Translations under genes and position numbers: made by a program | Part shown: positions 4,006-62,540 of the stretch, in pieces | Position numbering within the stretch: the first letter of the stretch is position 1 | Layout of the letters: the number at the start of each line of letters is the position of its first letter | Assembly (NCBI GenBank): GCA_964599405.1 | Contig: CAZRED010000001.1 | Coordinates: forward strand, 218,323-282,322 | Reading direction: 5' to 3' | DNA length: 64,000 bases | From: an uncultured Candidatus Saccharibacteria bacterium | Lineage (GTDB): Bacteria > Patescibacteriota > UBA1384 > 2-12-FULL-50-11 | The notes under the pieces: generated by a model | What the model saw: the letters and a program-made list of their open reading frames with translations, nothing else | Databases searched by the model: none | What the model was told of the DNA's origin: nothing

Positions 4006-5172
4006 GTGAGACACCGAAAAGATCGTGAGTACTACGAGAATTTCTACGACAAGCTAACCGTTCATTTTGCTCGGAACGATATGGATTCCTTTTTCAGGCT
4101 CCGCGACGAGCTGAAAAAGAAGCTGCCGAAAAAAGAGTTTGAAGCACAAAGCACGCTGTTCTGGCTCGATAAGCTTTGCGACATGCTGGTTATGTGGCCA
4201 TGTGGTGAGCGCTGGGAAAAACGGGGCAGAGAGATCGACAGCATGATGCTAGCCGACGGAAATAAAGACCGCCAACTGGAAAACGCCCGGCTTCGACAGG
4301 AACCTGTTTGCAAACACTGCGGCAAGATTGGTTTACGTATCACCAGTAAGTATTTGATGCATCGAAACGGCTACTCACAAGACGTGCCAGAAGAAGTTTT
4401 GTTCATGCTCGACTGCCCAGCTTGCGAAAAACGAAGCAGTTACTGGGAAAGCGGCGAGTCATTTGAGAGACAGTCGACCCTCTGTCCAAAATGCCAAAGC
4501 GAGATGAAAGAACGCGACAGTCGCAAAGGCAAGATAATCACTACAACCTACACCTGCTCCAAATGCAAACATTCGTATAAAACGGCGCTCGATCTTCGTT
4601 CAAAGCCAGAAGAACCGGATCCGGATTTCGAGAAGCATAAAGCGATTTTCTGTTTTGATAATAAAACCGGTTTGGAGTATTTGCAGCGGCGCAACAACTG
4701 GAAAGCGTTTCAAGAGATGATGGATAGGGAAAAAGAGAAGGAGCAAAACGAGGCGCTGTACGGCTTAGTCGCGAAGATCAAGCGATTAAAAATTGCCGAA
4801 CTGATTGAGCTAATGGAAAAAGAGCTCAAGAAAGTCGAGTTTATTGAGGTTCGCTTTGAGAAGCCGGAGATTGGCAAAGACGTCATCGTTTCGTTTAGCT
4901 GCTTAGACGGAGATTCCAAACGCAGCGCTTATGACAGCGAAAAAATCCTAAAACGAACCGTTAAGAAAACATTACACCCAACCAACTGGCGACTGATGAC
5001 CGAAGGTGTCAGTTACCGTCTTGGCTACTTAACCGGCCGAGTCCGAGCCTACGAAAACGAAGAAGATTTGGTAAGGCTGATCGAAAAAGATCAGCCAGAG
5101 CTCAAGCGGGAGAAAACGGCGAATGATCCTGATCAACTTTTAGACAAAGACGGAAACATTATTACTTTGTAA
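4006..5172 (+). CDS. hypothetical zinc-ribbon protein (four CxxC pairs)
   Basis: 388-aa ORF with CKHCGK...CPACEK and CPKCQS...CSKCKH, i.e. two predicted zinc ribbons, and a charged coiled-coil-like C-terminal half. Its 3' end overlaps the convergent DGR RT gene by 11 nt. Confidence 0.6.
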   Translation: MRHRKDREYYENFYDKLTVHFARNDMDSFFRLRDELKKKLPKKEFEAQSTLFWLDKLCDMLVMWPCGERWEKRGREIDSMMLADGNKDRQLENARLRQEPVCKHCGKIGLRITSKYLMHRNGYSQDVPEEVLFMLDCPACEKRSSYWESGESFERQSTLCPKCQSEMKERDSRKGKIITTTYTCSKCKHSYKTALDLRSKPEEPDPDFEKHKAIFCFDNKTGLEYLQRRNNWKAFQEMMDREKEKEQNEALYGLVAKIKRLKIAELIELMEKELKKVEFIEVRFEKPEIGKDVIVSFSCLDGDSKRSAYDSEKILKRTVKKTLHPTNWRLMTEGVSYRLGYLTGRVRAYENEEDLVRLIEKDQPELKREKTANDPDQLLDKDGNIITL

Positions 5173-6184
5173 GCGAGGCGGTGATCCGAGACTGAATTTT
5201 CTTTTTGAGCTTGTGGGTATCGGCGTGCTGTAAGACGCCGTGATACGACGCCAGCGACTGGCTAAGGTCGTATGTGGTGATCGACTTATCTTTGTATTCA
5301 CTTAGCCGCTGGTCAATCTTCTTGATGACTCGTTGTTTCGTTTTAGTTCGCAACTGCTTGCGGTACGGCAAGATAACGTAGCCTAAAAAGTCAGCGCCCT
5401 GCCGATATTTTCTGATCGATACTTTGTTTGGGTGTAACTCGAGCGATAGCTCCTTGGTTAAAAATGCCCTAACCGGCTCCAAGAGATTTATTAAATAGTC
5501 TTCACTCTCGGCGATAACGACAAAGTCGTCGGTGTAGCGAGCGTAATATTTTACGCCCAAAGTTTGTTTCACAAATTGATCAAACTCGTTCATGTATATG
5601 TTAGCAAAGAGCTGGCTGGTTAAGTTACCGATCGGCATACCGTCCGGAAAACTCCCGATGATTCGCTCCAGAAGCCAGAGGGCGTCCTCGTCTTTAATCC
5701 GTTTAGCGAAAGTTCGAATGATTAGCTCGTGGTCAACACTTCGAAAGAACTTTTTGATGTCACATTTGAGAACAAAACAGGGTCTGGTGTAATTATGACT
5801 AACCTGTCGGATCATTTTATCGACCGCCAAAACTCCTCGGTGAGTACCTTTGCCGACTCGGCAGGAGAATGACGTTGAAATAAACCCGGATTCGAAAATT
5901 GGATTGAGGATATTAAATAGGGCTTGGTGGACGACTCGATCACGCACCTCGGCCTTACTGATAAGCCGCTGTTTCGGGTCTTGGATGTAAAAGGTGTGAT
6001 ATTTGCCGTGCTTATACCGACGGCTTTTTAAGTCTCGGTGAAGCTGAAAAAGGTTTGGTTCGAGCAACCACTCAAACTTCTGAACATCTTTACGGCTCCG
6101 CTTACCTTTACGGAATTTTTCCCACGCCAAAAAGAGGTTTTCGACCGAAATGATTGCTTCGAACAGATTTTCGTATATTTTCAT
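5162..6184 (-). CDS. diversity-generating retroelement (DGR) reverse transcriptase
   Basis: 340 aa. N-terminus MKIYENLFEAIISVENLFLAWEKFRKGKR is typical of DGR RTs. Motif IGNLTSQ (the DGR-specific I/LGxxxSQ replacing group-II QG). Catalytic YTDD box (ARYTDDFVV). RDRVVHQAL motif. Confidence 0.9.
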   Translation of the reverse strand: MKIYENLFEAIISVENLFLAWEKFRKGKRSRKDVQKFEWLLEPNLFQLHRDLKSRRYKHGKYHTFYIQDPKQRLISKAEVRDRVVHQALFNILNPIFESGFISTSFSCRVGKGTHRGVLAVDKMIRQVSHNYTRPCFVLKCDIKKFFRSVDHELIIRTFAKRIKDEDALWLLERIIGSFPDGMPIGNLTSQLFANIYMNEFDQFVKQTLGVKYYARYTDDFVVIAESEDYLINLLEPVRAFLTKELSLELHPNKVSIRKYRQGADFLGYVILPYRKQLRTKTKQRVIKKIDQRLSEYKDKSITTYDLSQSLASYHGVLQHADTHKLKKKIQSRITASLTK

Positions 6185-6658
6185 ATGATGGAGACACTTG
6201 GTTTACCGATCTTTCAAAAGTCGTACGATCTTTATAAATCCTTCTACGGCTGTCGTGACCACGTCGCCAAACAAGACCGGCATACCGTTTGGCAGCGCTG
6301 CGAAAACCTAGTTCTCGATCTACTCCAGTCGATTATTCAGGCTAGCCAGCAAGATAAGGCGGATAAGCTGATAACACTCGAGAAAGCGAGCGTCCAGCTC
6401 AACATGCTTCGCATTTTATTACGGCTCACTAAAGACCTGAAAGTCATCGATCCCAAGAAATACCTAATGCTCGAGGAGCAAATCGACGAGGTTGGTCGAA
6501 TGTTGGGCGGTTGGCTCAGATCGACTAAGATCCCCCCCCCCCCGACTATTTGGGTTCGGACGCGCGTTAGTATGCTGTCTAAACTAAGATTGAGAGATAG
6601 TGCCGAGAGGCCGACAACCCCAAGTTGGAGTTGCGGTTACCATCCGAGTTCCTGTTGA
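6185..6658 (+). CDS. avd: DGR accessory variability determinant (Avd); true C-terminus probably near 6531-6590, the ORF reads through a C12 tract into the TR
   Basis: MMETLGLP... The C-terminal helix ...LEEQIDEVGRMLGGWLRS closely mirrors the Bordetella phage BPP-1 bAvd ...IAEVGRILGSWIAR, with four-helix-bundle family spacing. The start ATG at 6185 abuts the RT start codon (complement of 6182-6184). The part of the listed ORF before 6185 lies inside the RT gene and is discounted. Confidence 0.75.
   Translation: MMETLGLPIFQKSYDLYKSFYGCRDHVAKQDRHTVWQRCENLVLDLLQSIIQASQQDKADKLITLEKASVQLNMLRILLRLTKDLKVIDPKKYLMLEEQIDEVGRMLGGWLRSTKIPPPPTIWVRTRVSMLSKLRLRDSAERPTTPSWSCGYHPSSC
6532..6543. repeat. C12 homopolymer (G12 on the minus strand) at the avd 3' end, 59 bp from the TR
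   Basis: Twelve consecutive C read directly from the sequence. A tract of plus or minus 1 would end the Avd frame at about 6571 or 6590 instead of 6658. Confidence 0.9.
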
Positions 6659-6716
6659 CGTTGAACCCATTGGCATTGAAGTTGCCAACGTTGACGCGGT
6701 TGCCATTCGAATCGAT
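6603..6716 (-). repeat. DGR template repeat (TR), sense on the minus strand
   Basis: 114-bp near-identical copy of 7154..7267. All 17 mismatches are T in this copy on the plus strand (A on the minus strand) versus A/C/G in the other copy. It is AAC-codon rich on the minus strand and has a GC-rich 3' end (GGGGTTGTCGGCCTCTCGG, IMH-like). Confidence 0.9.
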
Positions 6717-6994
6717 ATTTGCCCATTTTCTTCTGGTTTCACCGAAAGTTGAGCCTTACCGTCGGATTCTATCTTGAACCCTGCGGCTAAAGAATTATCG
6801 AATCGACCTATTTACTCTTCTTTCTGAATTTTATTTGGGAGCAGCGTAGAAGCATCTCCACCAAAAATGAGCAAGAACTTTCTCTCAAATCTTTCTCGCA
6901 CGCTGCCGCAACCGGTGGCTGCTGACATTCTGGCGAACTGAAGAATGAGTGCCCCGCGAGACCCAACCATGGCCGGATCTACACTAGCAAGACG

Positions 6995-7010
6995 CCTGCA
7001 TTATACCTGT
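6995..7010 (-). promoter_or_regulatory. candidate promoter -10 (CAGGTATAAT on the minus strand) positioned to drive a TR-containing transcript
   Basis: The minus strand reads CCTAACAGGTATAATGC. It shares CAGGTATAAT with the target-gene promoter element at 8110-8119. The -35 is weak. Confidence 0.3.
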
Positions 7011-7074
7011 TAGGATGTCAGCCGTACAGGGTTAAACAACGAAAAATGTGGCGAGCGCTTCGCGCTCTTAGTAT

Positions 7075-7102
7075 AAAAAAGCCCCGGCGGAAAACCGCCG
7101 GG
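7075..7102 (-). terminator. rho-independent terminator downstream of the DGR target gene
   Basis: Stem CCCGGCGG / loop AAAA / CCGCCGGG, followed on the minus strand by a T6 tract. Confidence 0.7.
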
Positions 7103-7144
7103 AGTTCAAGGGGGACAAAAGGCTCAAGAGCCAATGTCCAAAGT

Positions 7145-8002
7145 TCAGAAGTTCCGAGAGGCCGACAACCCCAAGTAGGAGTAGCGGAAACCATCCGAGT
7201 ACCCGCGGACGCCGAACCCATAGGCATCGAAGCAGCCAACGTAGACGCGGTTGCCATCCGAAACGATGTCGGAGCAGCGAACGTAGACGTTCTCGAACAG
7301 GCGCTCTCCCGTATTCAGGAAGTGTCCCATGACCGTGTACGTCATAACGCAAGCTGTCGGAGTCGTCTCGTCCTTCAGGAGGGCTTGCTGCTCGTCCCAA
7401 GACTTGCTGGTCGAGTTATCGACCGGCTGCTTGCGGATGAGGTACCAGCGGACTTCGACTTTGGTCTTCTTGGCGAAGGCTTGAGTCTCATACCACCCGC
7501 CGGTCGGCGTGTAGAAGAGCTTGCCCTTCTTGGCTCGGCCAGCCTTGGTCCGAACTTGCAGGAGCGTCATCGGATAGCCGGCAACGAGCACGTGTGTGTC
7601 TTTGCAAGCTTCGAGAACTTCCTTAGTGAACGGAACCGTAGCGAGAGCGTCGAGCTGATCCTGGGTCCACTTAGCACCGAGGTGCTTCGCGGCTTCTTCG
7701 AGACCGAAGAAGTTCGTTCCCATGATCGTCTTGGCTTCGTTCTGGCTGTCGGTCAGCTCGATGGCGGCAACAGGCGGAGCCTGCTGGCCGGCCTTCTTCA
7801 AGGCCTTACGAGCAATCCGATCCATCTCGTTAGCGAGCTGGTCATAGCCCAGAAAGGCTTGAAAGCCCGGGCCGTCCAAACCGTTACGGTGGACAAAATC
7901 GCGCATGACCTGGTCGCACTTGTGAAACTGGTCGTCAGTGACTGGAGTAGATGGAGGGGTCTGTGTTTGTGGCATCAGGCGTCTCCTCGTGTTTATGCCC
8001 AC
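7145..8002 (-). CDS. DGR target protein with C-terminal CLec/FGE-like variable region; no signal peptide evident
   Basis: 285-aa ORF containing the VR. The C-terminal GFRYSY/ VRGYSDG pattern resembles C-type-lectin-fold DGR targets. The opposite-strand 354-aa ORF (7046..8110) is R/L/A/G-rich antisense. Confidence 0.8.
   Translation of the reverse strand: MGINTRRRLMPQTQTPPSTPVTDDQFHKCDQVMRDFVHRNGLDGPGFQAFLGYDQLANEMDRIARKALKKAGQQAPPVAAIELTDSQNEAKTIMGTNFFGLEEAAKHLGAKWTQDQLDALATVPFTKEVLEACKDTHVLVAGYPMTLLQVRTKAGRAKKGKLFYTPTGGWYETQAFAKKTKVEVRWYLIRKQPVDNSTSKSWDEQQALLKDETTPTACVMTYTVMGHFLNTGERLFENVYVRCSDIVSDGNRVYVGCFDAYGFGVRGYSDGFRYSYLGLSASRNF
7154..7267 (-). repeat. DGR variable repeat (VR) in the 3' end of the target gene
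   Basis: Counterpart of the TR. It encodes the last ~40 aa of the target protein (...VYVRCSDIVSDGNRVYVGCFDAYGFGVRGYSDGFRYSYLGLSASR). Differences from the TR occur exclusively at TR adenines. Confidence 0.9.
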
Positions 8003-8373: not shown

Positions 8374-8946
8374 ATGAGTTATGATCACCTCATGAAAAGC
8401 GAGCTACTAATCTTGGCTGAATTTCCCGAGGAAATTTGTTGGCTCGGTAATGAAATACTCCGCCAAAAAGCAGAGTCCCTCACTCAGAATGAAATAAAAG
8501 AGGGGAAAGCTGCAGAAATTACCAAAAGGCTAGAGATAACCCTTAAAAAGATTCAAAAACTTGGCAAGGGTGTTGCCATCGCTGCACCACAAATAGGAAT
8601 CTCTAAAGCAATAATCATTATTTACCTAGAAGATCGGTATATTCCTTTTATAAATCCTGTGATTACCACTGCTTCAGAAAACAAGAACTCTTTTCCCGAA
8701 GGCTGTTTGAGTAGTTTACCGTTAGTGGCTGAAACCATCCGACCGGCAGAAATTGACGTGAAATATTTAGACGCTGAAGGAAAAGAACATTTGGAACATT
8801 TTGATGGCAAGATGGCACGAATGCTCCAACACGAGGTTGATCATCTCAACGGCATTCTGTTTATTGACCGAGCGAACTTAAAGACAGGCCGTTTCATAGC
8901 CGACTGGGATGAGTACAAAGAAACAGCTCAGCTAACTGAAATATAA
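8374..8946 (+). CDS. def: peptide deformylase
   Basis: Motifs GVAIAAPQIG, EGCLS and HEVDHLNG (HExxH). Confidence 0.85.
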   Translation: MSYDHLMKSELLILAEFPEEICWLGNEILRQKAESLTQNEIKEGKAAEITKRLEITLKKIQKLGKGVAIAAPQIGISKAIIIIYLEDRYIPFINPVITTASENKNSFPEGCLSSLPLVAETIRPAEIDVKYLDAEGKEHLEHFDGKMARMLQHEVDHLNGILFIDRANLKTGRFIADWDEYKETAQLTEI

Positions 8947-10138: not shown

Positions 10139-10248
10139 ACTTACTCCATATCGTACTCGTTATTTGATATCGGAGTAGGCCGGAAAACGAGACAAAATGC
10201 AACTTCTTTTTTATAGTGTCTCAAATGTCTCATTTACCCTGATGGGAA

Positions 10249-10270
10249 GTTCTAGACCGGAATGTCCCGC
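10249..10270 (+). repeat. 22-bp direct repeat, copy 1 (GTTCTAGACCGGAATGTCCCGC)
   Basis: Perfect identity with 10719..10740. Lies 43 bp upstream of the peptidase gene start. Confidence 0.9.
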
Positions 10271-10313
10271 CAGTCTTGATAATAAAAATATAAATTCTAC
10301 AATTCGGGGATCC

Positions 10314-10718
10314 ATGGAAAGTGTCACTCAACAAGATAATTATGGTTGTGGGGTAGCTTGTGTCGCCTATATTAGTAAAAGGACTTATCGAGCAACGTTA
10401 AAAACATTAGACGCTAAAGCGGCTAAGACTCGGGGGTTTGCTTGCAAGGATTTGGTTATCGGCTTAAATACCATAGGCCATTCTTATACTTATAGTTACC
10501 TCCCAGGAAAGTTAAAACGAAAAATTTATGCTGATGGTGTTATCGTGTTTATTAAAAGGTCTGAACATTACCCGGCCGGACATTACTTAGTTCGAAGCCA
10601 AAATAAGTGGATGGACCCTTGGCTTAATTTTAAGAAGGATCGAAATATTAAAAAAGCTGAGTCTGGCTATCGAGCTAGGTTACCCGGCAAACCAGTTTAT
10701 GCCTTATTCCCAAATTAG
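10314..10718 (+). CDS. papain-like cysteine peptidase, C39-like domain protein
   Basis: QQDNYGCGVACVAYI matches the C39-family Q...CG(V/P)AC catalytic-Cys motif. The start is taken at the internal ATG with a GGGGA RBS. The track ORF from 10197 would include repeat copy 1. Confidence 0.5.
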   Translation: MESVTQQDNYGCGVACVAYISKRTYRATLKTLDAKAAKTRGFACKDLVIGLNTIGHSYTYSYLPGKLKRKIYADGVIVFIKRSEHYPAGHYLVRSQNKWMDPWLNFKKDRNIKKAESGYRARLPGKPVYALFPN

Positions 10719-10740
10719 GTTCTAGACCGGAATGTCCCGC
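10719..10740 (+). repeat. 22-bp direct repeat, copy 2
   Basis: Begins immediately after the TAG stop of the peptidase gene. Confidence 0.9.
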
Positions 10741-10803
10741 ATTGTTTGCTTCTAATAAATTCTCTATGTATATTCCGGTGAGACACACAGGAGGAATTCG
10801 TCT

Positions 10804-11136
10804 ATGAACCTTATATTTCGAATCAACACTACTGCCGATGACGCGGGTGAAATGCTTGGGTTGGTCAATAAGCTCGAATGGAGGTTAGAAGTCCTCAATC
10901 TTGGAGTGACCATCAAAAAGACCATGGTTTCGTCTCGGAAGAAACGTAACGAACCGCACACTCTAACAGTTGGCGAAAGGGCCGTTCGGGGTGTTGAGCA
11001 AATTGAGGCACTTCTTAGTGATATGCGCCTTAATCCTTACTGGCTTACCGCTGAACAGGCTTCTGTAGAAGTGCGTAAATGGCCGACATGGAAACGTGGT
11101 GACTACTCACATCTCAAGCTTCCCGAAGCAACATAG
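10804..11136 (+). CDS. hypothetical protein
   Basis: 110-aa ORF with an AGGAGG RBS 7 nt upstream. Confidence 0.45.
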   Translation: MNLIFRINTTADDAGEMLGLVNKLEWRLEVLNLGVTIKKTMVSSRKKRNEPHTLTVGERAVRGVEQIEALLSDMRLNPYWLTAEQASVEVRKWPTWKRGDYSHLKLPEAT

Positions 11137-11219
11137 TCCGGAGCCCGAAACGATCTCAACCCGTCCTTCTGGACGGGTTATCCCTTTATTTACGGACAAT
11201 CCTAGTTCATAATCGAACT

Positions 11220-11606: not shown

Positions 11607-12199
11607 TGAATCGCTGCTCTTGGCCGGGAACAAACGAGCAGATGATTCGTTACCACGACGAAGAGTGGGGCATGCCCTGCCACGACGATCGGAAACTGTT
11701 TGAATACATCGTGCTCGACACTTTCCAGGCCGGTTTGAGTTGGGCAATTGTGCTGAATAAGCGGGAGGGCTTCCGGAAGGCGTTCGACAACTTTAATCCA
11801 GAGAAAATCGCCCTGTATCACAATATTGTGATACAACGGCTCAAGAACAATCCGGAAATAATTCGCAACAAACTCAAGATTGCCGCGACGGTAACTAATG
11901 CTCAAGCGTTTTTGGCAATCCAGAAGGAGTTTGGCAGTTTTGATAGGTACATTTGGCAGTTTGTTTACCCCGAGCAAGGTCGAGGGGTCGGTGGCAAACC
12001 TCTTGTCAACTCGCCCAAAGAAGATTCCCATATCGCTAGCTCCTCCAAAGAATCCGATGCGATGAGCGCAGATCTGAAAAAGCGCGGCTTCAAGTTTGTC
12101 GGCACCACTATTTGTTATGCCTTTATGCAGGGAGCGGGCTTAGTAAACGACCACACAACTAATTGCTTTCGTTACAATGACCTCAAGAATGCAAAGTAG
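11607..12199 (+). CDS. tag: DNA-3-methyladenine glycosylase I
   Basis: YHDEEWGMPCHDDRKLFEYIVLDTFQAGLSWAIVLNKREGFRKAF matches the Tag family. Confidence 0.85.
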
Positions 12200-16816: not shown

Positions 16817-17272
16817 TTAATCCTTTTTCAGCACTTCCCTAATCAACGTCCCGGGGAAGCCTCGGCGCTGGAGCAGGTGGACGGATTTTTCGAAGCGTTT
16901 CCGCTCGGTCAGCTCCCGCCATGAGCGCTGTTTGCTCTCTAACAACGATCGGGCGGCGGCTAACTCTTCTTCTTGGTCTATCGCACCAACGGCTTCGTTG
17001 ATAATTTCTTTGGGAATGCCCTTCTGAATTAACTCCAGGGCAATCCGGTGCCGACCCCGACGGTAAAGCCTTACTTTGTCGTGTGAGTAGTTGGCGGCGT
17101 ACTTTTGGTCGTCCAAAAAGCCGATTCTTTCCAAGTCGGCTATGGTTTTAGTAATTTGATCGTCCTCATAACCTTTGTCACGCAGCTTAACTAGCATATC
17201 CCGCTTAGAGCGGGCCCGATTGCGTAGTAAATACAGGGCGTACTGGAGGGGCGGCAGTGGCCGCGAGGCCAT
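16817..17272 (-). CDS. recX: RecA regulator RecX
   Basis: 151 aa, directly downstream of recA, with a RecX-like helical repeat pattern. Confidence 0.75.
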   Translation of the reverse strand: MASRPLPPLQYALYLLRNRARSKRDMLVKLRDKGYEDDQITKTIADLERIGFLDDQKYAANYSHDKVRLYRRGRHRIALELIQKGIPKEIINEAVGAIDQEEELAAARSLLESKQRSWRELTERKRFEKSVHLLQRRGFPGTLIREVLKKD

Positions 17273-18315
17273 TAGTCTGGTTCCACAATGACGCCAAGCG
17301 GCCCGTTGGCGGCCAGCTCGCGAATTTTCTTGTCTAGCACTTCGGCCAGCTTGACGTCACCTTTGAGAAAAGCTTTGGCAGCCTCCCGTCCCTGCCCAAG
17401 CTTTTGCTCTCCGTACTGGAACCAGGCGCCGCTCTTGTCAATCAGGCCGGCTTTCACGCCGAGGTCGAGTAGGTCACCTTCTTTAGATATACCCGAATCA
17501 AACATTAAATCAAACTCGGCCACCCGGAACGGCGGGGCAATCTTATTCTTCACCACTTTCACTCTCACTCGGTTACCGATCGGCGTTTCACCGTCTTTAA
17601 TTTGCTCACTCCGGCGAATATCCAAGCGCACGGAAGCATAAAATTTCAAAGCGTTGCCGCCGGAGGTAGTCTCCGGATTACCGAACATCACGCCAATCTT
17701 GAAACGGATTTGGTTAATAAAAATCAGCGTCGCCTTCGATTTGGAAACGGCACCGGTTAGCTTACGCAAGGCTTGACTCATCAAGCGCGCCTGGACGCCC
17801 ATCATTGAATCGCCCATCTCCCCTTCAATTTCTGCTCGTGGTACCAAGGCAGCTACCGAGTCGACGACCACCACGTCGACGGCGTTAGAGCGAATTAGCG
17901 TCTCCACAATTTCCAGCGCTTGCTCGCCGGTGTCGGGCTGGGAAATCAGTAAGTTCTCTAAATCCACGCCGAGCTTAGCAGCGTAGGTTGGCTCGAAAGC
18001 GTGCTCGGCATCCACTAATGCCCCCATACCACCCCGTTTTTGCGCCGAGGCAATCGCCGAAAGCGCCAACGACGTTTTACCGGAGGACTCTGGCCCGTAG
18101 ATCTCCACAATCCGCCCCCGCGGAAAACCGCCAGCCCCCAATGCTACGTCCAGTGACAGTGAGCCGGTGGGAATCGTTTCAATGTTTAAGTGGGTTTGTT
18201 CACCCAGCTTCATAATCGAACCAGCACCGAACTGTTTTTCAATCTGATCTAACGCCGCCTGGAGTGCTTGATCGCGGCCAGAATGAGCCGATTCGTTTTT
18301 TACTGCCTTAGCCAT
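17272..18315 (-). CDS. recA: recombinase RecA
   Basis: [19 protein letters not shown] (Walker A) and RecA L1/L2 regions. Confidence 0.95.
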
Positions 18316-47842: not shown

Positions 47843-48262
47843 ATGCAATTTAAAGTTCCCCAAAACATCGATATGGAGGATAAGATTATTGGGCCGCTGA
47901 CGCTGACCCAGTTCTTTTACTTGCTCTTTGGCGGGGTGATTCTCTATATTCTCTTCAACAAACTAGTACTGTCTGGTTTGTCGTTACTGTTTTGGGTGTT
48001 GGCAATTCCTATCGGGACATTCAGTTTCGCGATGGCCTTTGTGAAAATCCAAGACCGGCCGTTCCCCTCGTTCTTTTTCGCCATGTTGAAATACGCCTCG
48101 ACGCCTCGAGCTCGGGTCTGGCAGCACTACACTCGCCCCAACCAGGTCAAGCCGAAGGTTGTTGCACCGAAAGCGGCGACCCCGAAAAAATCCTTCGACA
48201 CCGTCCGGGTGAGTGAATTAGCCCAGGTGATGGATCAAGATTTGCCGAGGGCTCAAGAGTGA
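47843..48262 (+). CDS. PrgI/VirB3-like small two-TM protein
   Basis: MQFKVPQNIDMEDKIIGPLTLTQFFYLL N-terminal pattern of the PrgI family, followed by two TM helices. Immediately precedes the VirB4-like gene. Confidence 0.5.
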   Translation: MQFKVPQNIDMEDKIIGPLTLTQFFYLLFGGVILYILFNKLVLSGLSLLFWVLAIPIGTFSFAMAFVKIQDRPFPSFFFAMLKYASTPRARVWQHYTRPNQVKPKVVAPKAATPKKSFDTVRVSELAQVMDQDLPRAQE

Positions 48263-50928
48263 TGGCCAAGAAAGCCCAAAACAAACCGGTTGCTACCCAG
48301 AAGTTCCTGCAGATCGAGCGAATTCGCGACGGCATCGTTATCTTGAAAGACGGCCGGCTGCGCAAGATTGTCCGGTGTATGCCGTTAAACTTTGATTTGA
48401 AAAGTGAAAAAGAAAAAGAAGTGGCGATTTATCAGTACCAAAACTTTTTGAATTCGCTGAAGTTTCCCCTGCAAATCGTCATCCAATCGCGACGGGTGGA
48501 CTTGTCGGCCTACGTGGAAAAAGTTGAGCAGGCTTCGGCCAACGAAATTAACGAACTACTCCAAAAACAGTCGAAAGACTACCTGGAATTCATCAAAATT
48601 CTAAGCGAACAGGTTAATATCATGGAGAAGTCTTTCTATATGATTGTCGGCCATACGGTGAAAGGAGCGGTAGAGCGCCAGACCTTCGTGGACAAAATCC
48701 TGGGGAAAAAGCGAATTGGTCTGACCGATGTGACCGACAAAGACTTTGCTGAATACAAAACAGTCTTGAGTGAACGGACCCGCACCGTCGCTGGCCGACT
48801 GAATTCGCTGGGCATCCAAACCCATGAACTAGACACCCGGGAAATTATTGAGCTGTTTTACAACTCCTATAACCCCGAGGAATCCTTCACTCAACACTTA
48901 GCCGACCCCGAACAAGTAACGGCTCCTGTGGTACAAAAAGGGCAGGATTTGCTGAAAAAAGCCGGGATTTCAGAGCTGTTACCGCCAGCGACTAACCCGC
49001 CAGCGGCAGCTGCGCCGGCTGGCGCTGGCGAGGTTAAGATTGACCAAGCGGCGGCGGCCGATATTGGCAACGAAGCCAAAACAATGCGCAAAACCACCGT
49101 TTCCCAAATTTTCAACCGGCTCGGCATTAAAGCCACCGACGCCGAAAACACCGAAGCGGTTCTGCGCCAGGGTATCGCCAGTGTGCTGGACGTGATTGCC
49201 CCGGGAGGCATGAATATCACCCCCAACTACGTGCAGCTAGGCAGCTACTATCTCCGCACTCTTTTTGTTTACACCTACCCGCGCTATCTCCAGGCCAACT
49301 GGCTCTCGCCGATTATCAATTATGACACCACGCTCGATTTAGGAATGTTTATCTACCCAATCGAAACCAATATTTTGGTCGGGCAGTTGCGCCGGAAAAC
49401 TACCCAATTACAGTCCAGCTTACAGATTGAGTCCGAAAAAGGGCTGGTTCGAAACCCGGAGCTGGAGACAGCCGTTGGCGATATCGAAGAGCTACGTGAC
49501 ACTCTTCAAAAAGGGGAAACCCGCCTGTTCCAGATGGGGCTCTACTTCACCATATACGCTAGTACGATCGACGAGCTTAATAAACTTTCCAAACAGTTCG
49601 AGTCAATCCTTGGCGGGCAGTTAATCTACACCAAGCAAGCCCTCTTACAAATGGAGCAAGGCTTCAACGCCACTATGCCGCTGCTCGACGACCAGATGGA
49701 TATCGTCCGCAATCTCGACACCGCTTCGCTCTCCACCACCTTCCCCTTCACCTCGGCCGAACTATCGCACCACGACGGTGTGCTCTACGGCATCAACTTG
49801 CACAATAGCTCACTGGTATTGTTTGACCGCTTCCGCATGGAGAACGCCAATCAGGTGGTTTTTGCCAAATCTGGCGCCGGTAAATCTTACGCCGTTAAGC
49901 TAGAAGTAATCCGTTCCTTGATGCTCGGCTCCGAAGTAATTGTGATTGACCCAGAAAACGAGTATCGCACCCTCGCTCAAGCCGTTGGCGGCACCTACGT
50001 TGACCTGTCGCTGAACTCCACCCAGAAAATTAACCCGTTTGATCTACCGAAATACCGCGAAGACTCTGGCGAAACCGGTGAACAGTTGCTGCGCAGCACT
50101 GTCGTGGCCGTTCACGGTCTGGTGAGCCTGATGGCTGGCAGTCTTAACCCCGAGGAAGACAACTTGCTCGACAAGGCCCTTTACGAAACCTACGCCCTGC
50201 GTGACATCACCACCGACCCAGCCAGCCACGCCAACACCCCGCCAACCATGAGCGATTTGGTAACAGTGCTCCAAAACATGAGCAGCACGGAGTCGCTGGT
50301 TAATCGCCTCGCCAAATACACCGACGGTAGTTTTGCCGGTTTGTTTAACTCCCAGACTAACATTGATATGAACAATAAAGTCACCGTTTTCTCGATCCGC
50401 GACATGGAAGACGAGCTCCGACCAATCGGCATGTACATGGCCTTGAACTACATCTGGGCACGGGTGAAAAGTGATTTGCGCAAACGAATGATGGTAATCG
50501 ACGAGGGCTGGGTGCTGATGCGCTACGAGGACTCGGCCAAATTTGTGAACGCCATCGCCAAACGAGCCCGCAAATACTACTTGGGTCTGACAGTGATTAG
50601 TCAAGACGTTGAAGATTTCTTGGGCTCCAGTTACGGCCGATCGGTAGTTAGCAACTCTTCAACCCAACTATTACTTGGCCAGTCGACCACGGCTATCGAT
50701 AAAATTGCCGAAGTTTTCAAACTGACCGATGGCGAGAAGTTTTTCTTAACCGAGGCGGAAGTCGGCCAGGGCTTGTTCTTTGCCGGTAATAACCGGGCAG
50801 CCATTCAAATTGTTTCGTCTTATACCGAAGATCAAATTATTACCACCGATCCGAAACAGCTGCTGGAGCTCTACGGCATTGGTGGGCAGTCCACTCCGCC
50901 CGAAGTGAATACGCCGCCAAATGGCTGA
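48259..50928 (+). CDS. VirB4-like T4SS ATPase (PrgJ/TrsE/CagE family)
   Basis: 889 aa. Walker A FAKSGAGKSYAVK in the C-terminal half, Walker B MMVIDEGW. N-terminal VirB4-type domain. Confidence 0.85.
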   Translation: MMAKKAQNKPVATQKFLQIERIRDGIVILKDGRLRKIVRCMPLNFDLKSEKEKEVAIYQYQNFLNSLKFPLQIVIQSRRVDLSAYVEKVEQASANEINELLQKQSKDYLEFIKILSEQVNIMEKSFYMIVGHTVKGAVERQTFVDKILGKKRIGLTDVTDKDFAEYKTVLSERTRTVAGRLNSLGIQTHELDTREIIELFYNSYNPEESFTQHLADPEQVTAPVVQKGQDLLKKAGISELLPPATNPPAAAAPAGAGEVKIDQAAAADIGNEAKTMRKTTVSQIFNRLGIKATDAENTEAVLRQGIASVLDVIAPGGMNITPNYVQLGSYYLRTLFVYTYPRYLQANWLSPIINYDTTLDLGMFIYPIETNILVGQLRRKTTQLQSSLQIESEKGLVRNPELETAVGDIEELRDTLQKGETRLFQMGLYFTIYASTIDELNKLSKQFESILGGQLIYTKQALLQMEQGFNATMPLLDDQMDIVRNLDTASLSTTFPFTSAELSHHDGVLYGINLHNSSLVLFDRFRMENANQVVFAKSGAGKSYAVKLEVIRSLMLGSEVIVIDPENEYRTLAQAVGGTYVDLSLNSTQKINPFDLPKYREDSGETGEQLLRSTVVAVHGLVSLMAGSLNPEEDNLLDKALYETYALRDITTDPASHANTPPTMSDLVTVLQNMSSTESLVNRLAKYTDGSFAGLFNSQTNIDMNNKVTVFSIRDMEDELRPIGMYMALNYIWARVKSDLRKRMMVIDEGWVLMRYEDSAKFVNAIAKRARKYYLGLTVISQDVEDFLGSSYGRSVVSNSSTQLLLGQSTTAIDKIAEVFKLTDGEKFFLTEAEVGQGLFFAGNNRAAIQIVSSYTEDQIITTDPKQLLELYGIGGQSTPPEVNTPPNG

Positions 50929-52225
50929 GCCGGCGTTGCAACTCCCCGACGACGATATTGAACCGGTCGAACCAAGCGACCCTGATGTTTTATACATGCC
51001 CGGCGCCGAACCGCCGCCGGAGTCTGTTGCTGACGATGGCCAAACCATTGATGCCCGCCCACAAATTAACGAACGTCTTGAGCAGCAGAAGCGCGCTAAA
51101 GCCCAAAGCGAAGTAGAAAAAGTAAAATCCGGCGAACAGAAACTGAAAAAAGCGACCAGCACACCGACAGCGGGCAAGTCCAAGTTCGGAGAGGCGGCCG
51201 CCGGTGCGGCACTGTCTGGCGGCGGAGACAAAGAAGACCGAAAAGAAAGAGCCAAAGAAGCCTTGAAAGAAGAGGCTAAACAACAAGCCAAGCAGTACGC
51301 GAAACAAATCGCTCGTCAGGCGGGTGCGACGATAAAGAAAGCGGCTGTTGAGGCTATCGCCGCCACCTCAGAGTTCTGGGTTCCTGCGCTGGTTATCATT
51401 CTAATTATCATTGCAATTGTCGCCATTATCTTTGTCCTCTTCTCCTTTGACGGTGACGGCGGCAAAGGCCCCGCCCAGTACCCGGAAACAGCCCTGCAGC
51501 GCCAGCACTCCAACTTTTTACTGGCAATTTCAGGCGATAAAATTGCGAGCGATGTGGCAGTCAAAGAAGTGATCGACAGCGAGCTCGAGCGCTACGATCG
51601 GATTAAGACCAACGCCGACCGTTTCAACCCCGACCTGTCAACTACCATTGCCGCCAAGAAAATTGAACTGGACGGCAAGCTGATGGGGCTGCTAATTGAA
51701 AAAAGTGTCGATCGGCGCAAAGTCTTGCGCGACCAATTCCAAGGGGAGATGCGGGCGTTTGAAGCCACGCTGCCGTTTGGCAGCTGGATTGCGGCGTTGG
51801 CCGAAGAGCGGGTAGGCCAGCCCAATCTGCAATTCTGTTCGATTACTGGCGCCACCGCTAAGGTAGCCTGCGCATCGTTTACGTCCACTATTATGTACCT
51901 GGCCGGCGTGCCCAATGCCATCGTTGGCAATACGACCGAAGTTTGGAACAACAGCGCTCTAAAAGTAGTGATCGATCGCAGCCCCGCCCCCACGGCAGGG
52001 CAGTACGACCCTGCCAAGCTTCAGCCCGGCGATATTATCTGGTGGGGCAATGGCAGCTGCAGCAGCGTCAAGTACTCTGGTAAGCTCTTTGACCACGTTG
52101 GTTTTTATGTTGGTAACGGCATGGCGATAGACACCAGCTCCAGCCGCGAAACGGTCGAAAAGCGCTCGGCGCCGCGTCGTGATAGCTGCCGGCTATTTAA
52201 CGGGGCTAAAAGGTACGGAAGATGA
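50921..52225 (+). CDS. membrane-anchored NlpC/P60 (CHAP-like) peptidoglycan hydrolase
   Basis: Acidic N-terminus, K/E-rich segment, TM (VPALVIILIIIAIVAIIFVLF). C-terminal FCSITG (Cys) and HVGFYVGNGMAID (His box) motifs. Confidence 0.55.
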   Translation: MAEPALQLPDDDIEPVEPSDPDVLYMPGAEPPPESVADDGQTIDARPQINERLEQQKRAKAQSEVEKVKSGEQKLKKATSTPTAGKSKFGEAAAGAALSGGGDKEDRKERAKEALKEEAKQQAKQYAKQIARQAGATIKKAAVEAIAATSEFWVPALVIILIIIAIVAIIFVLFSFDGDGGKGPAQYPETALQRQHSNFLLAISGDKIASDVAVKEVIDSELERYDRIKTNADRFNPDLSTTIAAKKIELDGKLMGLLIEKSVDRRKVLRDQFQGEMRAFEATLPFGSWIAALAEERVGQPNLQFCSITGATAKVACASFTSTIMYLAGVPNAIVGNTTEVWNNSALKVVIDRSPAPTAGQYDPAKLQPGDIIWWGNGSCSSVKYSGKLFDHVGFYVGNGMAIDTSSSRETVEKRSAPRRDSCRLFNGAKRYGR

Positions 52226-55200
52226 CAAATAAAAAAGTCTTTCAGCTATTGGCAGCAACGTTTCTGGGCCTGTTGATTGTTGCCCAACCGCTCTTTGTCG
52301 TTGGCCAGTGGCGGTTTGACCGAATCCAAGCTCAACAAGACGACGGCGTTGAGCCCGACAATACCAACGTTTCCCCGGAAGACCAGCTTGGCGACGCCTC
52401 CCCAATCGATTCGCTCGAAGAGCTCGATCCGGTACTGCTAACTAGCCCCGCCCTGACCATTGCCCCGCAAGACGCTAACAATATCCGTGAAGGCCGGGTG
52501 GACGTGCGGGTAACCGACTACTTAATTTACTTAATTACCCCCGTCGAGAAGGGTGGTGGTGGCTTTAAACACATTAAGACGCAACGAATTTTGAAGAACT
52601 ACGACACCGACGGCGTCGGCCGTTTTGATCGGGAAACCCTAGCCGCTATCGATGAAGACGGCTCGGTAATCTCGGCCCACAACGACGGCCAGGCGGTGGA
52701 CGTTTCAGAAGTTGGGGCGATTACCTGCAAAATGGTTGAGCGACGCTATTTGGGCGGCTCAACTACCAAGTGGCAACGCCCCAAACCAATCAAAGTGGCC
52801 TGGCAGAGCCGTGACGGCATCCGCCGCAACCCTACCCCGAAAGGACCAAGCCTCTTTGAGGTCGCTAACACCATGACCGCCCAAAGCATCCTGATGATGC
52901 TTAACGAGTCCGGCGAGATGGACGACTTTGCCGACTACGTCAAAGGGCTCTCGATGGGAGAAATCTTTCGCTACGTCGGCGCTAATATCCTGTTGAAAAA
53001 TTACGGCGCTGGCGATATCCAAATCGACCCACTTTCGCACGATGTTCCGGAGATTCTCGGGGCGCTGTTGTTGCAACGCTCACTCCCCGACTTGCCAACC
53101 AACCTACCAATTGCCGACGGCGATCAAGACATTCGGATTGCGGTCGCTCGCGCCCAAATAGAAGAATTGCTCAACTTGCCGGCCGGCTCGCTACGCGGTT
53201 TCGGCTGGGACGCTATTCTAGCCAGTACCGGCAAGCGAACTTTAGAAAATGCTTTGGGGCTCCCAACGCTAACCTTTGACAAGAAATCACTCGAGGAGGC
53301 TTTGGGTAACGATGCTGTTCAAGCCGCCCTTAAAGAATTCGCTCGCAGCGATCAATCGTTTGGAGTAATGGACGGTACCGTTGGCCTAATCCAGGCCAAA
53401 GATAACCGTGGCTTTGTGTGGGCCGGCGTTAATTTGCTGGCCGATGCTCTACGTTTAAGCCCCGAGCAGCGCCAAGCATTAGTGGCTGCCGTTAAAGCCA
53501 ACCAACAGCCGACAATTCAGCTAGAGACGGTCGGCGCCGACCAAGCTGTCCCCATCGATGTGCTGACCTCGATGTTTGTGGCTAGCGGCAACGAAACCCA
53601 GATACTAAAAGATTTTGGCCAGCGCTACCTTAGCCAAGTGCTCTCCAAGGCCGTGCCCAATCAGCTGTTGGGGCTGACTCGCGAGGTTTTGGGCGACTTA
53701 GCTAACTCTGACAGCAATGTTAAATACGGCGACCTGCGCCGCAGCATGGGGGTACGCAAAATTGCTTCGGACAGCTCGGTTTCCGTTGAAAATGCTGACA
53801 ACTTGGACGGCGGCGCCGGCAACAGCCGCTACTACGGCGAAATCGCCGAAGCCCTTAATGCCCAGCTCGACCTGTCGGTACAGACAATCGGCGCTGGCGA
53901 TATTACAGCGATGCTCCGCGGTGACAACTCAGGGTTACTGGCCAAGGTTGGCGGTAACCAGGCCGATAAAGCCCTCGGTTGGTATAACGGCACGGGCTAC
54001 GCCATTATCAACGGCGACAAAACTTTTGAGCAGGGTCTGAACGAAATCTTCAGCAACTCGTTAACCCAGCTAGTTGGCCTGCCGGCGGGTGTGGAGGTCA
54101 GCTTAGAAGGCGATCTCTACCGTAACTACGGTAACGCTCTGGCCGAAAACCGGCTGGGCTTTGCCTTAACGGAAGGCGGCTCGGCTACCGACATCAACCC
54201 CCAGACGCTTTATCAAGGCTTTGGACTGCGGGAAAGCCGGGGCTTGGCCGAACTGCGAGCCGATAACGCTTACTGGCAACGCGCCGACGTTATCGACGCC
54301 CTGGAGTTTTCCGATATTCGGCTGGGTGTGGCCCTAGGCAGTAGTGCTGCTTACCTGCGTGGCCAGAGCGATAACAACGCCTTTTCGCGCCTAGCCGCCC
54401 AAGGCAACTTATCAACCATTACCCGCGACAAAATTCTTAACTACCTAGACCTCGAAGACAACTACAAGTTAAGCAACGACGAGCTAAATGTTATCGTCGA
54501 CACCCTCGGCAACTGGGACAGCGCTGACGTTACCGCCCAGCAGCGGGTGCTTAGCTTGGGTCTAAAACTAATCGGCGTCACCCTCGACCAGCGAACAACG
54601 TTCGAAAAAGGAGCGATTCTCAATATTGCCCAGAGCCAAAATAGTGCCGAGCTAGTTGACCGACTGATTGAGCAAGGAGTCCGGCAGTTGGCCGGAGCTT
54701 TGGGAGTCAACGTCGCCAGCTTTGAAACGGCTGACTACAAGATACTTACCACCCTGCTAACCGATGCTTACAACGGCTCGCTGGCCGGCAGTACCGGTGC
54801 CTACGGCTATACCGCTGAAAACTTGCTAGTTAAATGGCTGACCGACGCTACCGGTATTCCGGTAGTCACCGACGTCCGGACTTTCATCGACGGTAACGTC
54901 CGAACTGGCCTCGAATCCTGGTCGGCCGCCCAGATGGTGAAGTTCGCCAATACCTACCTGCCCGGCGAAGTGCAGCTCACCTACGACGAGCTGCGTAATG
55001 CCATTAATTTAACCGACAGCGCGTTAATTAACGCCCGGGCTAGTGAGATTGCCGCCAGCAGCGGCGGGGTGGTGGCGGACTACGTCGACCAGGCTCGTCG
55101 GGAACTGATGCAGCAGTTCCGCGACAACGGCAAATACAAAATTTCCGACGCCTTTTTGCGCCAAGCCGAGATCCCGGTACCGGCTAACTTTTCGAAAGTG

Positions 55201-56502: not shown

Positions 56503-57233
56503 TGCGCCAGAAACGTCCAGGAATCTCGGCGGTAATTGTGATTGTCGCGGCACTGGTGATTATTCTCGGAATAATCGTTTTCCCGATTATTATTGTTGGA
56601 ACTTACTTAGGGGGAGGGCTGGATAAAGCAACGGGTGCGGTTGGGGCAACGCTAACCAGTAGCGAGTGTATCACCCCGCTCTATCCACCCGTGGCTGACG
56701 AGCAGAAATTCGCCGCCGCCATCGACACTTACGTCGCCAAACTAACCCCGAGCTCTCCATTTGTGGGCATGGGAAAGGTGTTCGTTGATGCTGGTAAAAG
56801 TTACGGCATTAATCCGGCCTGGGTGGTCAATATTGCCCGAAAAGAATCGTCGTTCGGCATTCACATACCACCAAACTCCAATAATGCTTTCGGCCGAACC
56901 GCCACATCAGAGCAGCCCGGCGTTGAGCTCAGCGGTCGCAAGTGGTATCGATACGACTCTTTTGAAGCTAGCATCCCCGTCCAAACCGAATATCTAAAAA
57001 GACGCTATATCGACCAAGGCCTAGTGACGATCGAGACCATTACTAACGTTTATGCTCCGCCGTCAGAAAACAGCACCGGCACGTATATCGAACAGATGAA
57101 GGAATGGATTGGTAGAGTGATGGCTCTGGCTGGTAACGGGGTTACTTGCCCAGGTTCGGCGGTCGTGGCAATTAAGGCAGCGCCGACAATTTTGTTGGCT
57201 GGTATATTGAAAGGGAGTATTAATGAAAAATAA
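56502..57233 (+). CDS. membrane-anchored glucosaminidase-like (FlgJ-type) peptidoglycan hydrolase
   Basis: N-terminal TM. ARKESSFG ... NNAFG ... YRYDSFEASI pattern of the mannosyl-glycoprotein endo-beta-N-acetylglucosaminidase domain. Confidence 0.55.
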   Translation: MRQKRPGISAVIVIVAALVIILGIIVFPIIIVGTYLGGGLDKATGAVGATLTSSECITPLYPPVADEQKFAAAIDTYVAKLTPSSPFVGMGKVFVDAGKSYGINPAWVVNIARKESSFGIHIPPNSNNAFGRTATSEQPGVELSGRKWYRYDSFEASIPVQTEYLKRRYIDQGLVTIETITNVYAPPSENSTGTYIEQMKEWIGRVMALAGNGVTCPGSAVVAIKAAPTILLAGILKGSINEK

Positions 57234-57819: not shown

Positions 57820-58089
57820 CTATCGAGATATTTTTATCCTAATTGTGTAGCCGTGGCCCTTACCGGCCATATCGACCAGCTCGGCGTAGAGCCGGGGTCG
57901 GCGCAGTTTAAAGAAAGTGGCCTGGGCGTTGCTGGCGCAGTGGAGGGTGATAATTTGGCCGCGTACACTGACCCGCGGGGCGTCGCTGTGAATGGTTTTG
58001 AGCTTTTTTTGAAACTGCGCTGATAGATAAATGCGCTGCAAATAATCCCGTCCCCCGCCGCTAAGGATATTTTTGATCGGTTCGATCAT
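57820..58089 (-). CDS. DUF721/DciA-like protein downstream of recF
   Basis: 89 aa. Conserved recF-DUF721 synteny. 4-nt overlap with recF. Confidence 0.55.
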   Translation of the reverse strand: MIEPIKNILSGGGRDYLQRIYLSAQFQKKLKTIHSDAPRVSVRGQIITLHCASNAQATFFKLRRPRLYAELVDMAGKGHGYTIRIKISR

Positions 58090-59114: not shown

Positions 59115-59117
59115 CCA

Positions 59118-61770: not shown

Positions 61771-61865
61771 CGTCGCTAAGGTACCGGAGTTTTCCACAGG
61801 GGTCAACAAACTGCCCGGAACGGTTGAAGGGCTGTGGAAAAACGGGTAAAATTGTTGAACATAAC
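61771..61865. promoter_or_regulatory. dnaA/rpmH divergent promoter region with inverted DnaA-box pair
   Basis: TTTTCCACA at 61791-61799 and TGTGGAAAA at 61833-61841. Confidence 0.6.
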
Positions 61866-62538: not shown

Positions 62539-62540
62539 AT

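Follow-up and report, generated by a model that had tools for sequence, protein, structure and literature searches.

Near one end of a 64,000-nt stretch of DNA from an uncultured Candidatus Saccharibacteria bacterium (contig CAZRED010000001.1, positions 218,323 to 282,322; hereafter the window), two perfect copies of a 22-nt sequence enclose one small peptidase gene. How did the same sequence come to stand on both sides of a single gene, and could it serve to release that gene again? Patescibacteria (the candidate phyla radiation, CPR) have tiny genomes and are genetically intractable, and their gene gain and loss are little understood. A preliminary description, made from the DNA letters, offered three possibilities for the arrangement: a single-gene cassette with a duplicated site resembling an attachment (att) site, a miniature inserted element, or a repeat pair capable of looping the gene out. 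The comparisons reported here support the first. Thus, the closest homolog of the gene shares with it a unit that ends in the site, a related contig carries other cargo between the same repeats, and one of the repeats belongs to a noncoding unit found at seven loci. With somewhat more confidence than doubt, we favour the reading that the 22-mers are two copies of an att-like module-junction site of Patescibacteria-type mobile elements, and that they bracket a peptidase cassette. The main features are as follows.

10174–10274, + strand: conserved noncoding module shared with contig L002, comprising block A, a 13-nt spacer and block B
10189–10235, + strand: block A, a promoter-like GAGACA-17-TATAGT followed by GTGTCTCAAATGTCTCATTT (promoter scan)
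10249–10274, + strand: block B, the junction site GTTCTAGACCGGAATGTCCCGCCAGT
10249–10270, + strand: direct repeat copy 1, the first 22 nt of block B
10274–10739, + strand: the cassette as homology to contig L050 (blastn) defines it, comprising promoter, peptidase open reading frame (ORF) and 3' repeat
10276–10303, + strand: cassette promoter TTGATA-16-TACAAT, sigma70-type and strong, matching 10 of 12 consensus positions (promoter scan)
10314–10718, + strand: gene for a predicted stand-alone papain/C39-like cysteine peptidase of 134 amino acids (aa), assigned from homologs, motifs and a structure model
10719–10740, + strand: direct repeat copy 2, the 3'-end site of the cassette; its counterpart in L050 is GTTCTAGACCGGTATGGCCCGA (19 of 22 positions)

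The 22-mer, GTTCTAGACCGGAATGTCCCGC, occurs on the forward strand at these two places only, and no third match was found in the window with up to three mismatches allowed. A direct sequence check bore out the geometry given in the preliminary description: both copies are perfect, they lie 470 nt apart start to start, and copy 2 begins at the base that follows the peptidase stop codon (TAG, 10716–10718). The identity between the copies is exactly 22 nt, with gggaa before and cagtc after copy 1, and attag before and attgt after copy 2. Chance or an assembly artefact is a negligible explanation for such a pair. Nothing speaks for it beyond the fact that the window and contigs L003 and L004 stem from one sample. 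Against it, none of 100 dinucleotide-preserving shuffles of the window gave a match to the 22-mer, the pair recurs in a metagenome contig of independent origin (L002), and the 26 nt of block B recur in an independent metagenome-assembled genome (MAG; L001). By our own arithmetic, the chance expectation for an exact 22-nt direct pair anywhere in 64 kb is ~1e-4.

The sequence is also rare elsewhere. The exact 22-mer has one match among 185,579 species-representative genomes, is found on one contig of the metagenome set, and has no match in viral contigs, nor has its 18-mer core. Being nearly missing from public data, it is neither a host housekeeping sequence nor a generic motif, which disposes of the concern, raised in the preliminary description, that it might be a widespread intergenic motif. 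No degenerate copy with six or fewer substitutions was found in the window or in the peptidase-homolog loci other than L050, and a looser two-box pattern revealed no further site in the low-GC island that the repeat pair borders. A different 22-nt sequence, the perfect palindrome TGTATCACAATATTGTGATACA, lies at 11814–11835 within the tag (DNA-3-methyladenine glycosylase) gene.

The two-part noncoding unit and its relatives

Copy 1 is the beginning of block B, and block B is in turn the second half of a noncoding unit present in seven independent loci, namely the window, L001, L002, L029, L030, L034/L036 and L032/L045, with a spacer of 13 to ~215 nt between the blocks. The module as a whole is 98% identical over 101 nt to positions 2780–2880 of L002. 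Block A, whose arms GAGACA and TGTCTC are inverted and give it an operator-like appearance, is present in the other loci (L001, L002, L029, L030, L034/L036 and L032/L045) in a version reading TTTTTATAGTGTSTCAWWTGTSTCA. The 26 nt of block B are identical in the window, L001 and L002. For comparison across loci, the base preceding these 26 nt was included, and the resulting 27-nt block has the following versions.

L030: GGTTCCAGACCTAGGTGCTCCGCCAGT, 20 of 27 positions identical to the window block
L029: GGTACCAGACAGGACTGGCCAGCCAAT, 20 of 27 positions identical to the window block
L032/L045: GGTACTTAACTCACATGGCCCGCCAAT, 18 of 27 positions identical to the window block

The two blocks lie 75–105 nt apart in L029, L030 and L032/L045, and L034/L036 carry a looser block B, starting GGTTCAAGACC, ~190 nt past block A. 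All of these were obtained by scanning viral contigs with the block A pattern. A degenerate pattern returned only L029 and L030 from the viral contigs, plus four chance matches in coding DNA; a short block A pattern returned mostly chance matches, plus L034/L036 and L045. A limited literature search turned up nothing on the two-part unit.

Similarity between loci always stops at block B, and the sequence that follows differs in each of the seven.

Window: the peptidase gene
L030: a NUDIX gene
L045: a gene for a 155-aa membrane protein
L001: a promoter, then a 57-aa ORF
L034: a gene for a 259-aa protein
L002: two opposite-strand genes, for a 190-aa KTI12-like P-loop kinase and a 370-aa protein
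L029: an FtsX-like permease gene in convergent orientation, entered at its 3' end

Contig L002 bears directly on the role of the repeats. The noncoding unit and the peptide deformylase (def) region, the latter 85% identical, are the only segments that it has in common with the window; all else differs. Its two repeat copies, identical over 25 nt and 1929 nt apart start to start, enclose the kinase gene and the 370-aa gene, the GC content of which is below that of the flanks, and beyond copy 2 the GC content is much higher. Since L002 and the window share the module and the site pair, and the cargo is unrelated, the same pair brackets different cargo. In both events, the repeat ends on the right with the same letters (…CCCGC).

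Large serine recombinase genes accompany the unit at several of the other loci. In L001 (Patescibacteria MAG UBA1875), ~295 nt separate the single copy of the site from the start of such a gene, which is divergent. Measured from block A, the recombinase gene is ~45–65 nt away in L001 and L045; in L034 it lies ~1.5 kb from block B. The enzymes encoded, of which that of L045 is 443 aa long, are serine-type (PF00239/PF07508) and form one widespread CPR family with 1344 matches. Furthermore, five of the seven loci lie in contigs that have mobile-element-type genes in common. The carriers L030, L034 and L045 share genes for a ParB-methylase, a methylase and terminase-like small and large subunits. 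In L030 (IMGVR_UViG_3300020195_001307), a 9117-bp unit is repeated ~2.9 times over 26 kb; the contig may represent a small circle that was assembled as a concatemer, or else a tandem array. Its gene content comprises the unit and NUDIX, RNR-like, kinase, terminase-like and ParB-methylase genes, and no recognisable recombinase was found in it. The gene just left of the window encodes a ParB-methylase 57% identical to that of L034, and the order ParB-methylase (−), unit (+), next gene (+) is collinear with the L030 map. This collinearity places the repeat pair where an island of the same element family has its cargo end and borders on the chromosome.

The recombinase genes have features of their own. 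Many members of the CPR family lie at contig ends or are split, as repeated mobile elements would be. Their 5' flank is conserved as CT(A/G)GACTT..CC.C....G.TACCTTTGT.C..ATG (L011 3960–4000, L012 3950–4000, L031 1440–1500, L001 7465–7506) and, judged from this pattern, might be an att site of their own or a regulatory region. As a further block B, the flank (CTAGAC or CTGGAC followed by TT..CC in L011, L012 and L031) bears only a loose resemblance and was not counted.

A conserved noncoding unit could also be a gene. Under this explanation, blocks A and B would delimit a gene for a small RNA, with the 22-mer as the 3' part of the gene, and elements would integrate into this 3' end and bring along a copy that restores it, as happens at tRNA and tmRNA genes. 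Block A is a good promoter aimed at block B, block B ends in ...GCCA(G/A)T, which is CCA-end-like, a run of eight T follows in L045, and a long-range pairing CTGnnGGGA...TCCCGCCAG appears possible, by eye, in the window, L001 and L030. Several results disagree with it, however. ARAGORN and Rfam found nothing at the window locus; Rfam gave no match for the unit in the window, L001, L029 or L030, even at E <= 1–10; and no tRNA was found by ARAGORN in L001. When both copies and their relatives were folded as DNA or RNA, the energies were no better than those of shuffles (z −0.1 to −1.2), and the spacer, at 13 to ~215 nt, has no conserved structure. In addition, copy 2 lacks the conserved 3' tail (CCAGT) expected of a displaced gene end. 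We thus consider a small RNA gene highly improbable. Two specific identities were rejected separately: a tRNA 3' end, in which the 22-mer plus CA would supply T-loop, acceptor strand and CCA (nothing by ARAGORN or Rfam, and the T-stem is unpaired in any copy), and a unit resembling signal recognition particle RNA or another known noncoding RNA (no Rfam match).

The peptidase cassette and its boundaries

The product of the gene between the repeats is, on sequence motifs and a structure model, a stand-alone papain/C39-like cysteine peptidase. The start codon at ATG 10314 is backed by 16 homologs; public gene calls begin at ATG 10197 instead (173 aa, P0001), a reading frame that would run through copy 1. 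The family is small, with 17 proteins among 5.8 billion, mostly from CPR/Patescibacteria samples, and two motifs are invariant across it, G11-C12-G13-x-A15-C16 (GCGxAC, holding the cysteine) and G89-H90 (holding the histidine). The preliminary description called the product C39-like, which holds at the level of the fold but not for Pfam. Thus, the AlphaFold model (pLDDT 95.7) finds its best matches in the Protein Data Bank among the C39 peptidase domains of ComA and PCAT1 and papain-like toxins, with template-modelling (TM) scores of 0.59–0.64, whereas the window protein scores 18 bits against Pfam C39 (PF03412), under the gathering cut-off of 22 (E 0.0027). C39 is matched by 8 of the 17 family members at E <= 0.01, the best at 3e-5. 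The context of a C39 ABC exporter with a double-glycine leader substrate is absent, as the 134-aa protein stands alone and its neighbours are unrelated in every locus.

The gene carries its own promoter, and the −10 box ends 10 nt ahead of the ATG. At this distance the mRNA would be near-leaderless, and a ribosome-binding site (RBS) unneeded. Of the "one gene plus its RBS" that the repeats had been thought to enclose, the single gene stands, but the RBS gives way to a promoter with a near-leaderless start. A promoter of nearly constant sequence, TTGTTAATAAAAATATAAATTCTACAAT, is found 6–10 nt before the start codons of homologs in L005, L007, L008, L013, L027 and L050; it is better conserved than the coding sequence (the proteins are 41–65% identical) and, as read from the sequences, implies near-leaderless or leaderless mRNAs throughout the family. 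The neighbours of the peptidase gene are unrelated in the six homolog loci (L005/L006, L007, L008–L010, L013–L022, L027/L028 and L050). Together with the promoter of its own, this indicates that the gene mostly travels as a promoter-plus-ORF unit. L023–L026 depart from this pattern, as there the peptidase gene overlaps an upstream HD-domain gene and is without its own promoter.

The boundaries of the cassette come from L050, which carries the closest homolog (P0002, 65% aa identity). By blastn, L050 35–501 matches window 10274–10739 with 71% identity over 470 nt, and there is no homology on either side. The matching span begins just past block B and finishes one base short of the end of copy 2. 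The L050 counterpart of the repeat lies directly at the end of the peptidase ORF, with the stop codon within the site. Because the homology is confined to promoter, ORF and 3' repeat, the heritable unit consists of promoter, ORF and 3' site. The GC content of the cassette, 0.386, differs from that to its left (0.446) and right (0.518). Furthermore, the genes that come next after the L050 site and after block B of L045 are homologs (pairwise E 9e-12), as expected if the cassette had been inserted at a block B.

Other homolog loci hold possible traces of sites. The peptidase locus of L007 (59% identity) ends in AAGTTGTAA..., which matches the site at 12 of 24 positions and is weak evidence for a decayed site. 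The 7-mer TTCTAGA, part of the window 22-mer and there 19 nt upstream of the −35 box, occurs in the Woesebacteria-type locus L013 (~2440–2460), 17 nt upstream of the peptidase −35 box; it may have been left over from an upstream site, or have arisen by chance. L008–L010 are a second case of a peptidase gene between direct repeats. There, an unrelated perfect 29-nt repeat, TTTTGGACGGCTTGACTTTCCGTAGCAGG (L008 4804–4832 and 5453–5481; also in L009 and L010), brackets homolog P0007. This repeat extends to ~40 nt if imperfect, holds a terminator-like CCGTC-TTTT-GGACGG hairpin, and adjoins two apparent tRNA genes (by eye).

L008–L010 have a bearing on a further explanation, according to which the repeat is a passive by-product. 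A shared linker patch would have let host homologous or illegitimate recombination shuffle modules, with no dedicated function and no dedicated recombinase, and the gene could still be lost through repeat-mediated deletion. That a homolog is bracketed by an unrelated 29-nt repeat shows that flanking repeats are not tied to one sequence. Identity lengths differ (22 nt in the window, 25 nt in L002), as homology-driven crossovers would give; the 64-kb window has no recombinase in cis; and it does contain recA, at 17272–18315. On the other side, block B is discrete in seven loci and always marks the end of similarity, which favours a site with a function over a random patch of homology, and the right boundary is the same in both events. 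Moreover, 22 bp lies at the lower limit for RecA-dependent recombination, which also counts against a by-product. We regard this explanation as doubtful, and place it after the regulatory one that follows.

The main rival to a junction site is a cis-regulatory one, in which the 22-mer is a protein-binding site (activator or operator) ahead of two consecutive accessory-gene promoters; its perfect identity would be explained by one regulator binding both copies. The positions lend themselves to this view. Both copies end 5 nt upstream of −35-like hexamers, TTGATA (10276) and TTGCTT (10746); in L001, L030, L045 and L050, a start codon of the same orientation lies 26–57 nt downstream of block B; block B of L045 and the site of L050 precede homologous membrane-protein genes; and the resemblance of block A to a promoter with an operator makes the unit plausibly regulatory. 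Other loci do not conform, however. Copy 1 of L002 is followed by ~190 nt of noncoding DNA and then by the opposite-strand genes, and the L029 site by the 3' end of the convergent gene. Spacing between site and promoter varies, from 10 nt in L001 and 24 nt at L002 copy 2 to overlap in L030 and L050. In L050, the site still accompanies the peptidase ORF that precedes it, even though the gene that follows is another one than in the window. An identity of 22–26 nt across distant genomes without dyad symmetry is unusual for an operator, and the peptidase promoter seems, from the homolog sequences, to work in six other contexts without the site. Weighing these points, we consider a regulatory site unlikely, but the first alternative to be kept in mind. 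If it were correct, the site would define a regulon of element-borne accessory genes.

Proposed recombination at the junction site and known systems

The att-like reading starts from what the sequences show, namely the repeat pair, the limits of the cassette, the unit conserved across loci, the other cargo of L002 and the recombinase genes associated with the unit elsewhere. From comparison of these sequences, we infer that recombination at the site created the arrangement; the enzyme and the position of the crossover are inferred as well. Copy 1 would be the end (block B) of the two-part unit of an element, situated at the cargo end of that element. The peptidase cassette would be self-contained, comprising a near-leaderless promoter, the ORF and, 3' of it, a copy of the site. 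Present as a circle or in another free form, the cassette would most probably have recombined with block B of the element via the shared 22 nt, leaving the cassette bracketed by the site, in the manner of SCC (staphylococcal cassette chromosome) elements or of tandemly accreted islands parted by att repeats. The enzyme could have been a serine recombinase supplied in trans, as with psi-SCC elements, or host RecA, through homologous recombination over 22–25 bp. The duplication would then be both a scar and a substrate for later excision, as the two copies could recombine and loop the gene out. Excision would leave an empty junction 10248/10741 with one 22-mer, and the circle junction is expected to read ...AATTAG-22-mer-CAGTCTTG..., i.e. 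...CCAAATTAG-22-mer-CAGTCTTGATAA.

Several observations weigh against this scenario. First, paired sites are found only in the window and L002; in the available DNA, L001, L029, L030, L034 and L045 have a single copy. Second, the cassette is not always accompanied by the site. The preliminary description had named a gene without flanking repeats in related genomes as an argument against its proposal, and distant homologs (41–59% identity) are indeed without the repeat, whereas the closest, L050, retains the 3' site. Third, neither an empty site (unit, 22-mer and downstream gene, with the cassette missing) nor a circular junction was found; the search for an empty site via the downstream 110-aa gene met an ORFan without homologs, and look-ups of window proteins returned the same genome only. 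Fourth, no recombinase of any family was found in the 64-kb window, either by tblastn with the L001 serine recombinase or by Pfam over 47 ORFs. For large serine recombinases a crossover of only 2 bp is normally sufficient and long repeats are not left behind, so that an identity of 22–25 bp is atypical of them; SCC elements are an exception. Fifth, block B has no clear dyad symmetry or significant fold, and its conserved CCAGT tail stands behind copy 1 and not behind copy 2, which simple insertion of a cassette into an intact block B does not predict. Finally, the exact 5-nt distance from the end of each copy to a −35-like hexamer suits a regulatory site equally.

A transposon, insertion sequence or miniature inverted-repeat transposable element with target-site duplication was rejected on sequence features, as the 448-nt insert does not end in inverted repeats and there is no transposase. 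A target-site duplication of fixed length is contradicted by the 22 nt of the window and the 25 nt of L002.

Among known systems, the arrangement would by analogy work most like SCC elements, and its architecture appears most like that of an integron, yet it fails defining features of both. In the SCC system, 15-bp direct repeats of the att core partition a hot spot, the content between repeats differs among isolates, and large serine recombinases act on segments that may lie in tandem and, when recombinase-less (psi-SCC, without ccr), are movable in trans (PMC4723332). The present locus resembles this in that direct repeats of a site bound cargo, different cargo lies between the same repeats in L002, and large serine recombinase genes are found beside the unit in L001 and L045 and somewhat further off in L034, although none is in the window. 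It differs in that the SCC attB is the 3' end of the host gene rlmH/orfX, whereas the site here is in the element's own noncoding unit; in that the cassette is a single 0.45-kb gene; and in that the recombinases of L001, L034 and L045 are no more than candidates for a Ccr-like role at the site.

With integrons, the system shares the succession of recombinase gene, outward-facing promoter, attachment site and single-gene cargo that varies, the L001 recombinase gene being divergent from block A as intI is from Pc. It also resembles them in that the ORF of the cassette is followed at its 3' end by the recombination site (window and L050). Unlike IntI, a tyrosine recombinase, the associated enzyme is serine-type, and the window has none. 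The site is not a folding imperfect palindrome, and it starts GTTCTAG, with C at the fourth position in place of the R of the GTTRRRY core. Integron cassettes are promoterless and driven by Pc, whereas this one has its own conserved promoter, and one cassette is seen here rather than an array. An attC-like hairpin was rejected, as the folds are not better than shuffles. A bolder proposal is that blocks A and B form an integron-like gene-capture platform (serine recombinase, outward promoter and site), which takes in small circular cassettes with leaderless promoters and a 3' site, the peptidase being one such capture. We put it forward tentatively, and would sooner expect it to be wrong than right by a wide measure.

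Three further comparisons are partial. Cis-mobilizable elements (CIMEs) and tandem island accretion involve a recombinase-less, att-flanked segment beside a larger integrative and conjugative element (ICE) that shares the site, and here too a recombinase-less, repeat-bracketed segment lies next to a larger element with the same site. CIME-type systems have tyrosine integrases, att sites in host genes (tRNA, fda) and kilobase segments derived from decayed ICEs; the segment here is a single promoter–gene unit and not a kilobase segment. Phage morons are single accessory genes with their own promoter in a mobile-element genome, and are not defined by flanking direct repeats. The peptidase gene is moron-like in its own promoter, its base composition unlike that of the neighbours and its unrelated contexts elsewhere, but a scan of the window found no terminator for the peptidase unit, and no relative without the insert was found. 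The adjacent 110-aa ORFan, with a promoter-like site and a terminator-like hairpin, fits the definition better. Lastly, pdif modules and integrative mobile elements exploiting Xer (IMEX) are small recombinase-less modules bounded by short sites and recombined by the host XerC/D, pdif sites being inversely oriented. The present module is likewise recombinase-less and bounded by copies of a short site, but these are in direct orientation, and by eye the 22-mer is unlike dif (11-6-11, with the conserved TTATGTTAAAT arm). A dif/Xer site was accordingly rejected.

If the att-like reading is true, the 22–27-nt site, the promoter unit and the serine recombinases constitute a concrete mechanism of accessory-gene exchange in Patescibacteria. 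The junction site would then be a handle for spotting Patescibacteria mobile elements in metagenomes, and site plus recombinase a candidate engineering tool for these bacteria. Whether the site serves recombination or regulation, the two-part unit is a conserved sequence missing from Rfam.

The island and its surroundings

The repeat pair coincides with a step in base composition, as GC is 0.446 over the first 10.7 kb and 0.518 beyond. The low-GC part is an island with DUF2254, a diversity-generating retroelement (DGR), def, DUF6879 and LysE genes, to which the ParB-methylase gene just left of the window also belongs. From ~11 kb on, the window is core chromosome, with tag, msrB, recA, ftsK, rnj, pnp, polA, murE-like and tsaD genes, an aminoacyl-tRNA synthetase gene, recF, dnaN, dnaA and yidC.

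Directly past copy 2 lies a second unit, the features of which are listed below.

10746–10774, + strand: promoter-like site, TTGCTT (10746–10751), 17 nt, TATATT (10769–10774); weak, 8 of 12 consensus positions, below the scan threshold
10804–11136, + strand: 110-aa ORFan gene, with Shine–Dalgarno (SD) sequence GGAGG at 10790–10794
11160–11192, + strand: putative terminator, a hairpin CCCGTCC-TTCT-GGACGGG with a T-rich tail, seen by eye and unreported by the scanner

The 110-aa protein has no homolog but itself among the 5.8 billion sequences, and no Pfam, PHROG or PADLOC match. With its promoter-like site, SD sequence and hairpin, the gene forms a moron-like unit. Pairing of the peptidase and the 110-aa ORF as toxin and immunity protein was considered and rejected, as no homolog locus has a conserved partner gene and there was no PADLOC or PHROG match.

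Within the island, def occupies 8374–8946 (3488–4060 in L002, where it is broken into two ORFs by a frameshift or stop). Being shared with L002, it is probably element-borne rather than the host housekeeping def. The DGR, at 5162–8002, is complete: it comprises a reverse transcriptase gene (5162–6184, −), a bAvd-like gene (6227–6658, +), a template repeat (6599–6716) and a variable repeat (7150–7267), the last located where a high-GC target gene (7145–8002, −) encodes the C terminus of its product. Differences between the template and variable repeats fall at template adenines in 17 of 18 cases.

A type IV secretion-like cluster occupies 48259–57233 and 58086–63287 at the other end of the window, and includes genes for a TraG-like P-loop ATPase, a 1426-aa protein and a glucosaminidase. 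It adjoins the replication-origin region (recF, dnaN, dnaA, yidC and two tRNAs), and the island with the repeat pair lies ~50 kb away from dnaA.

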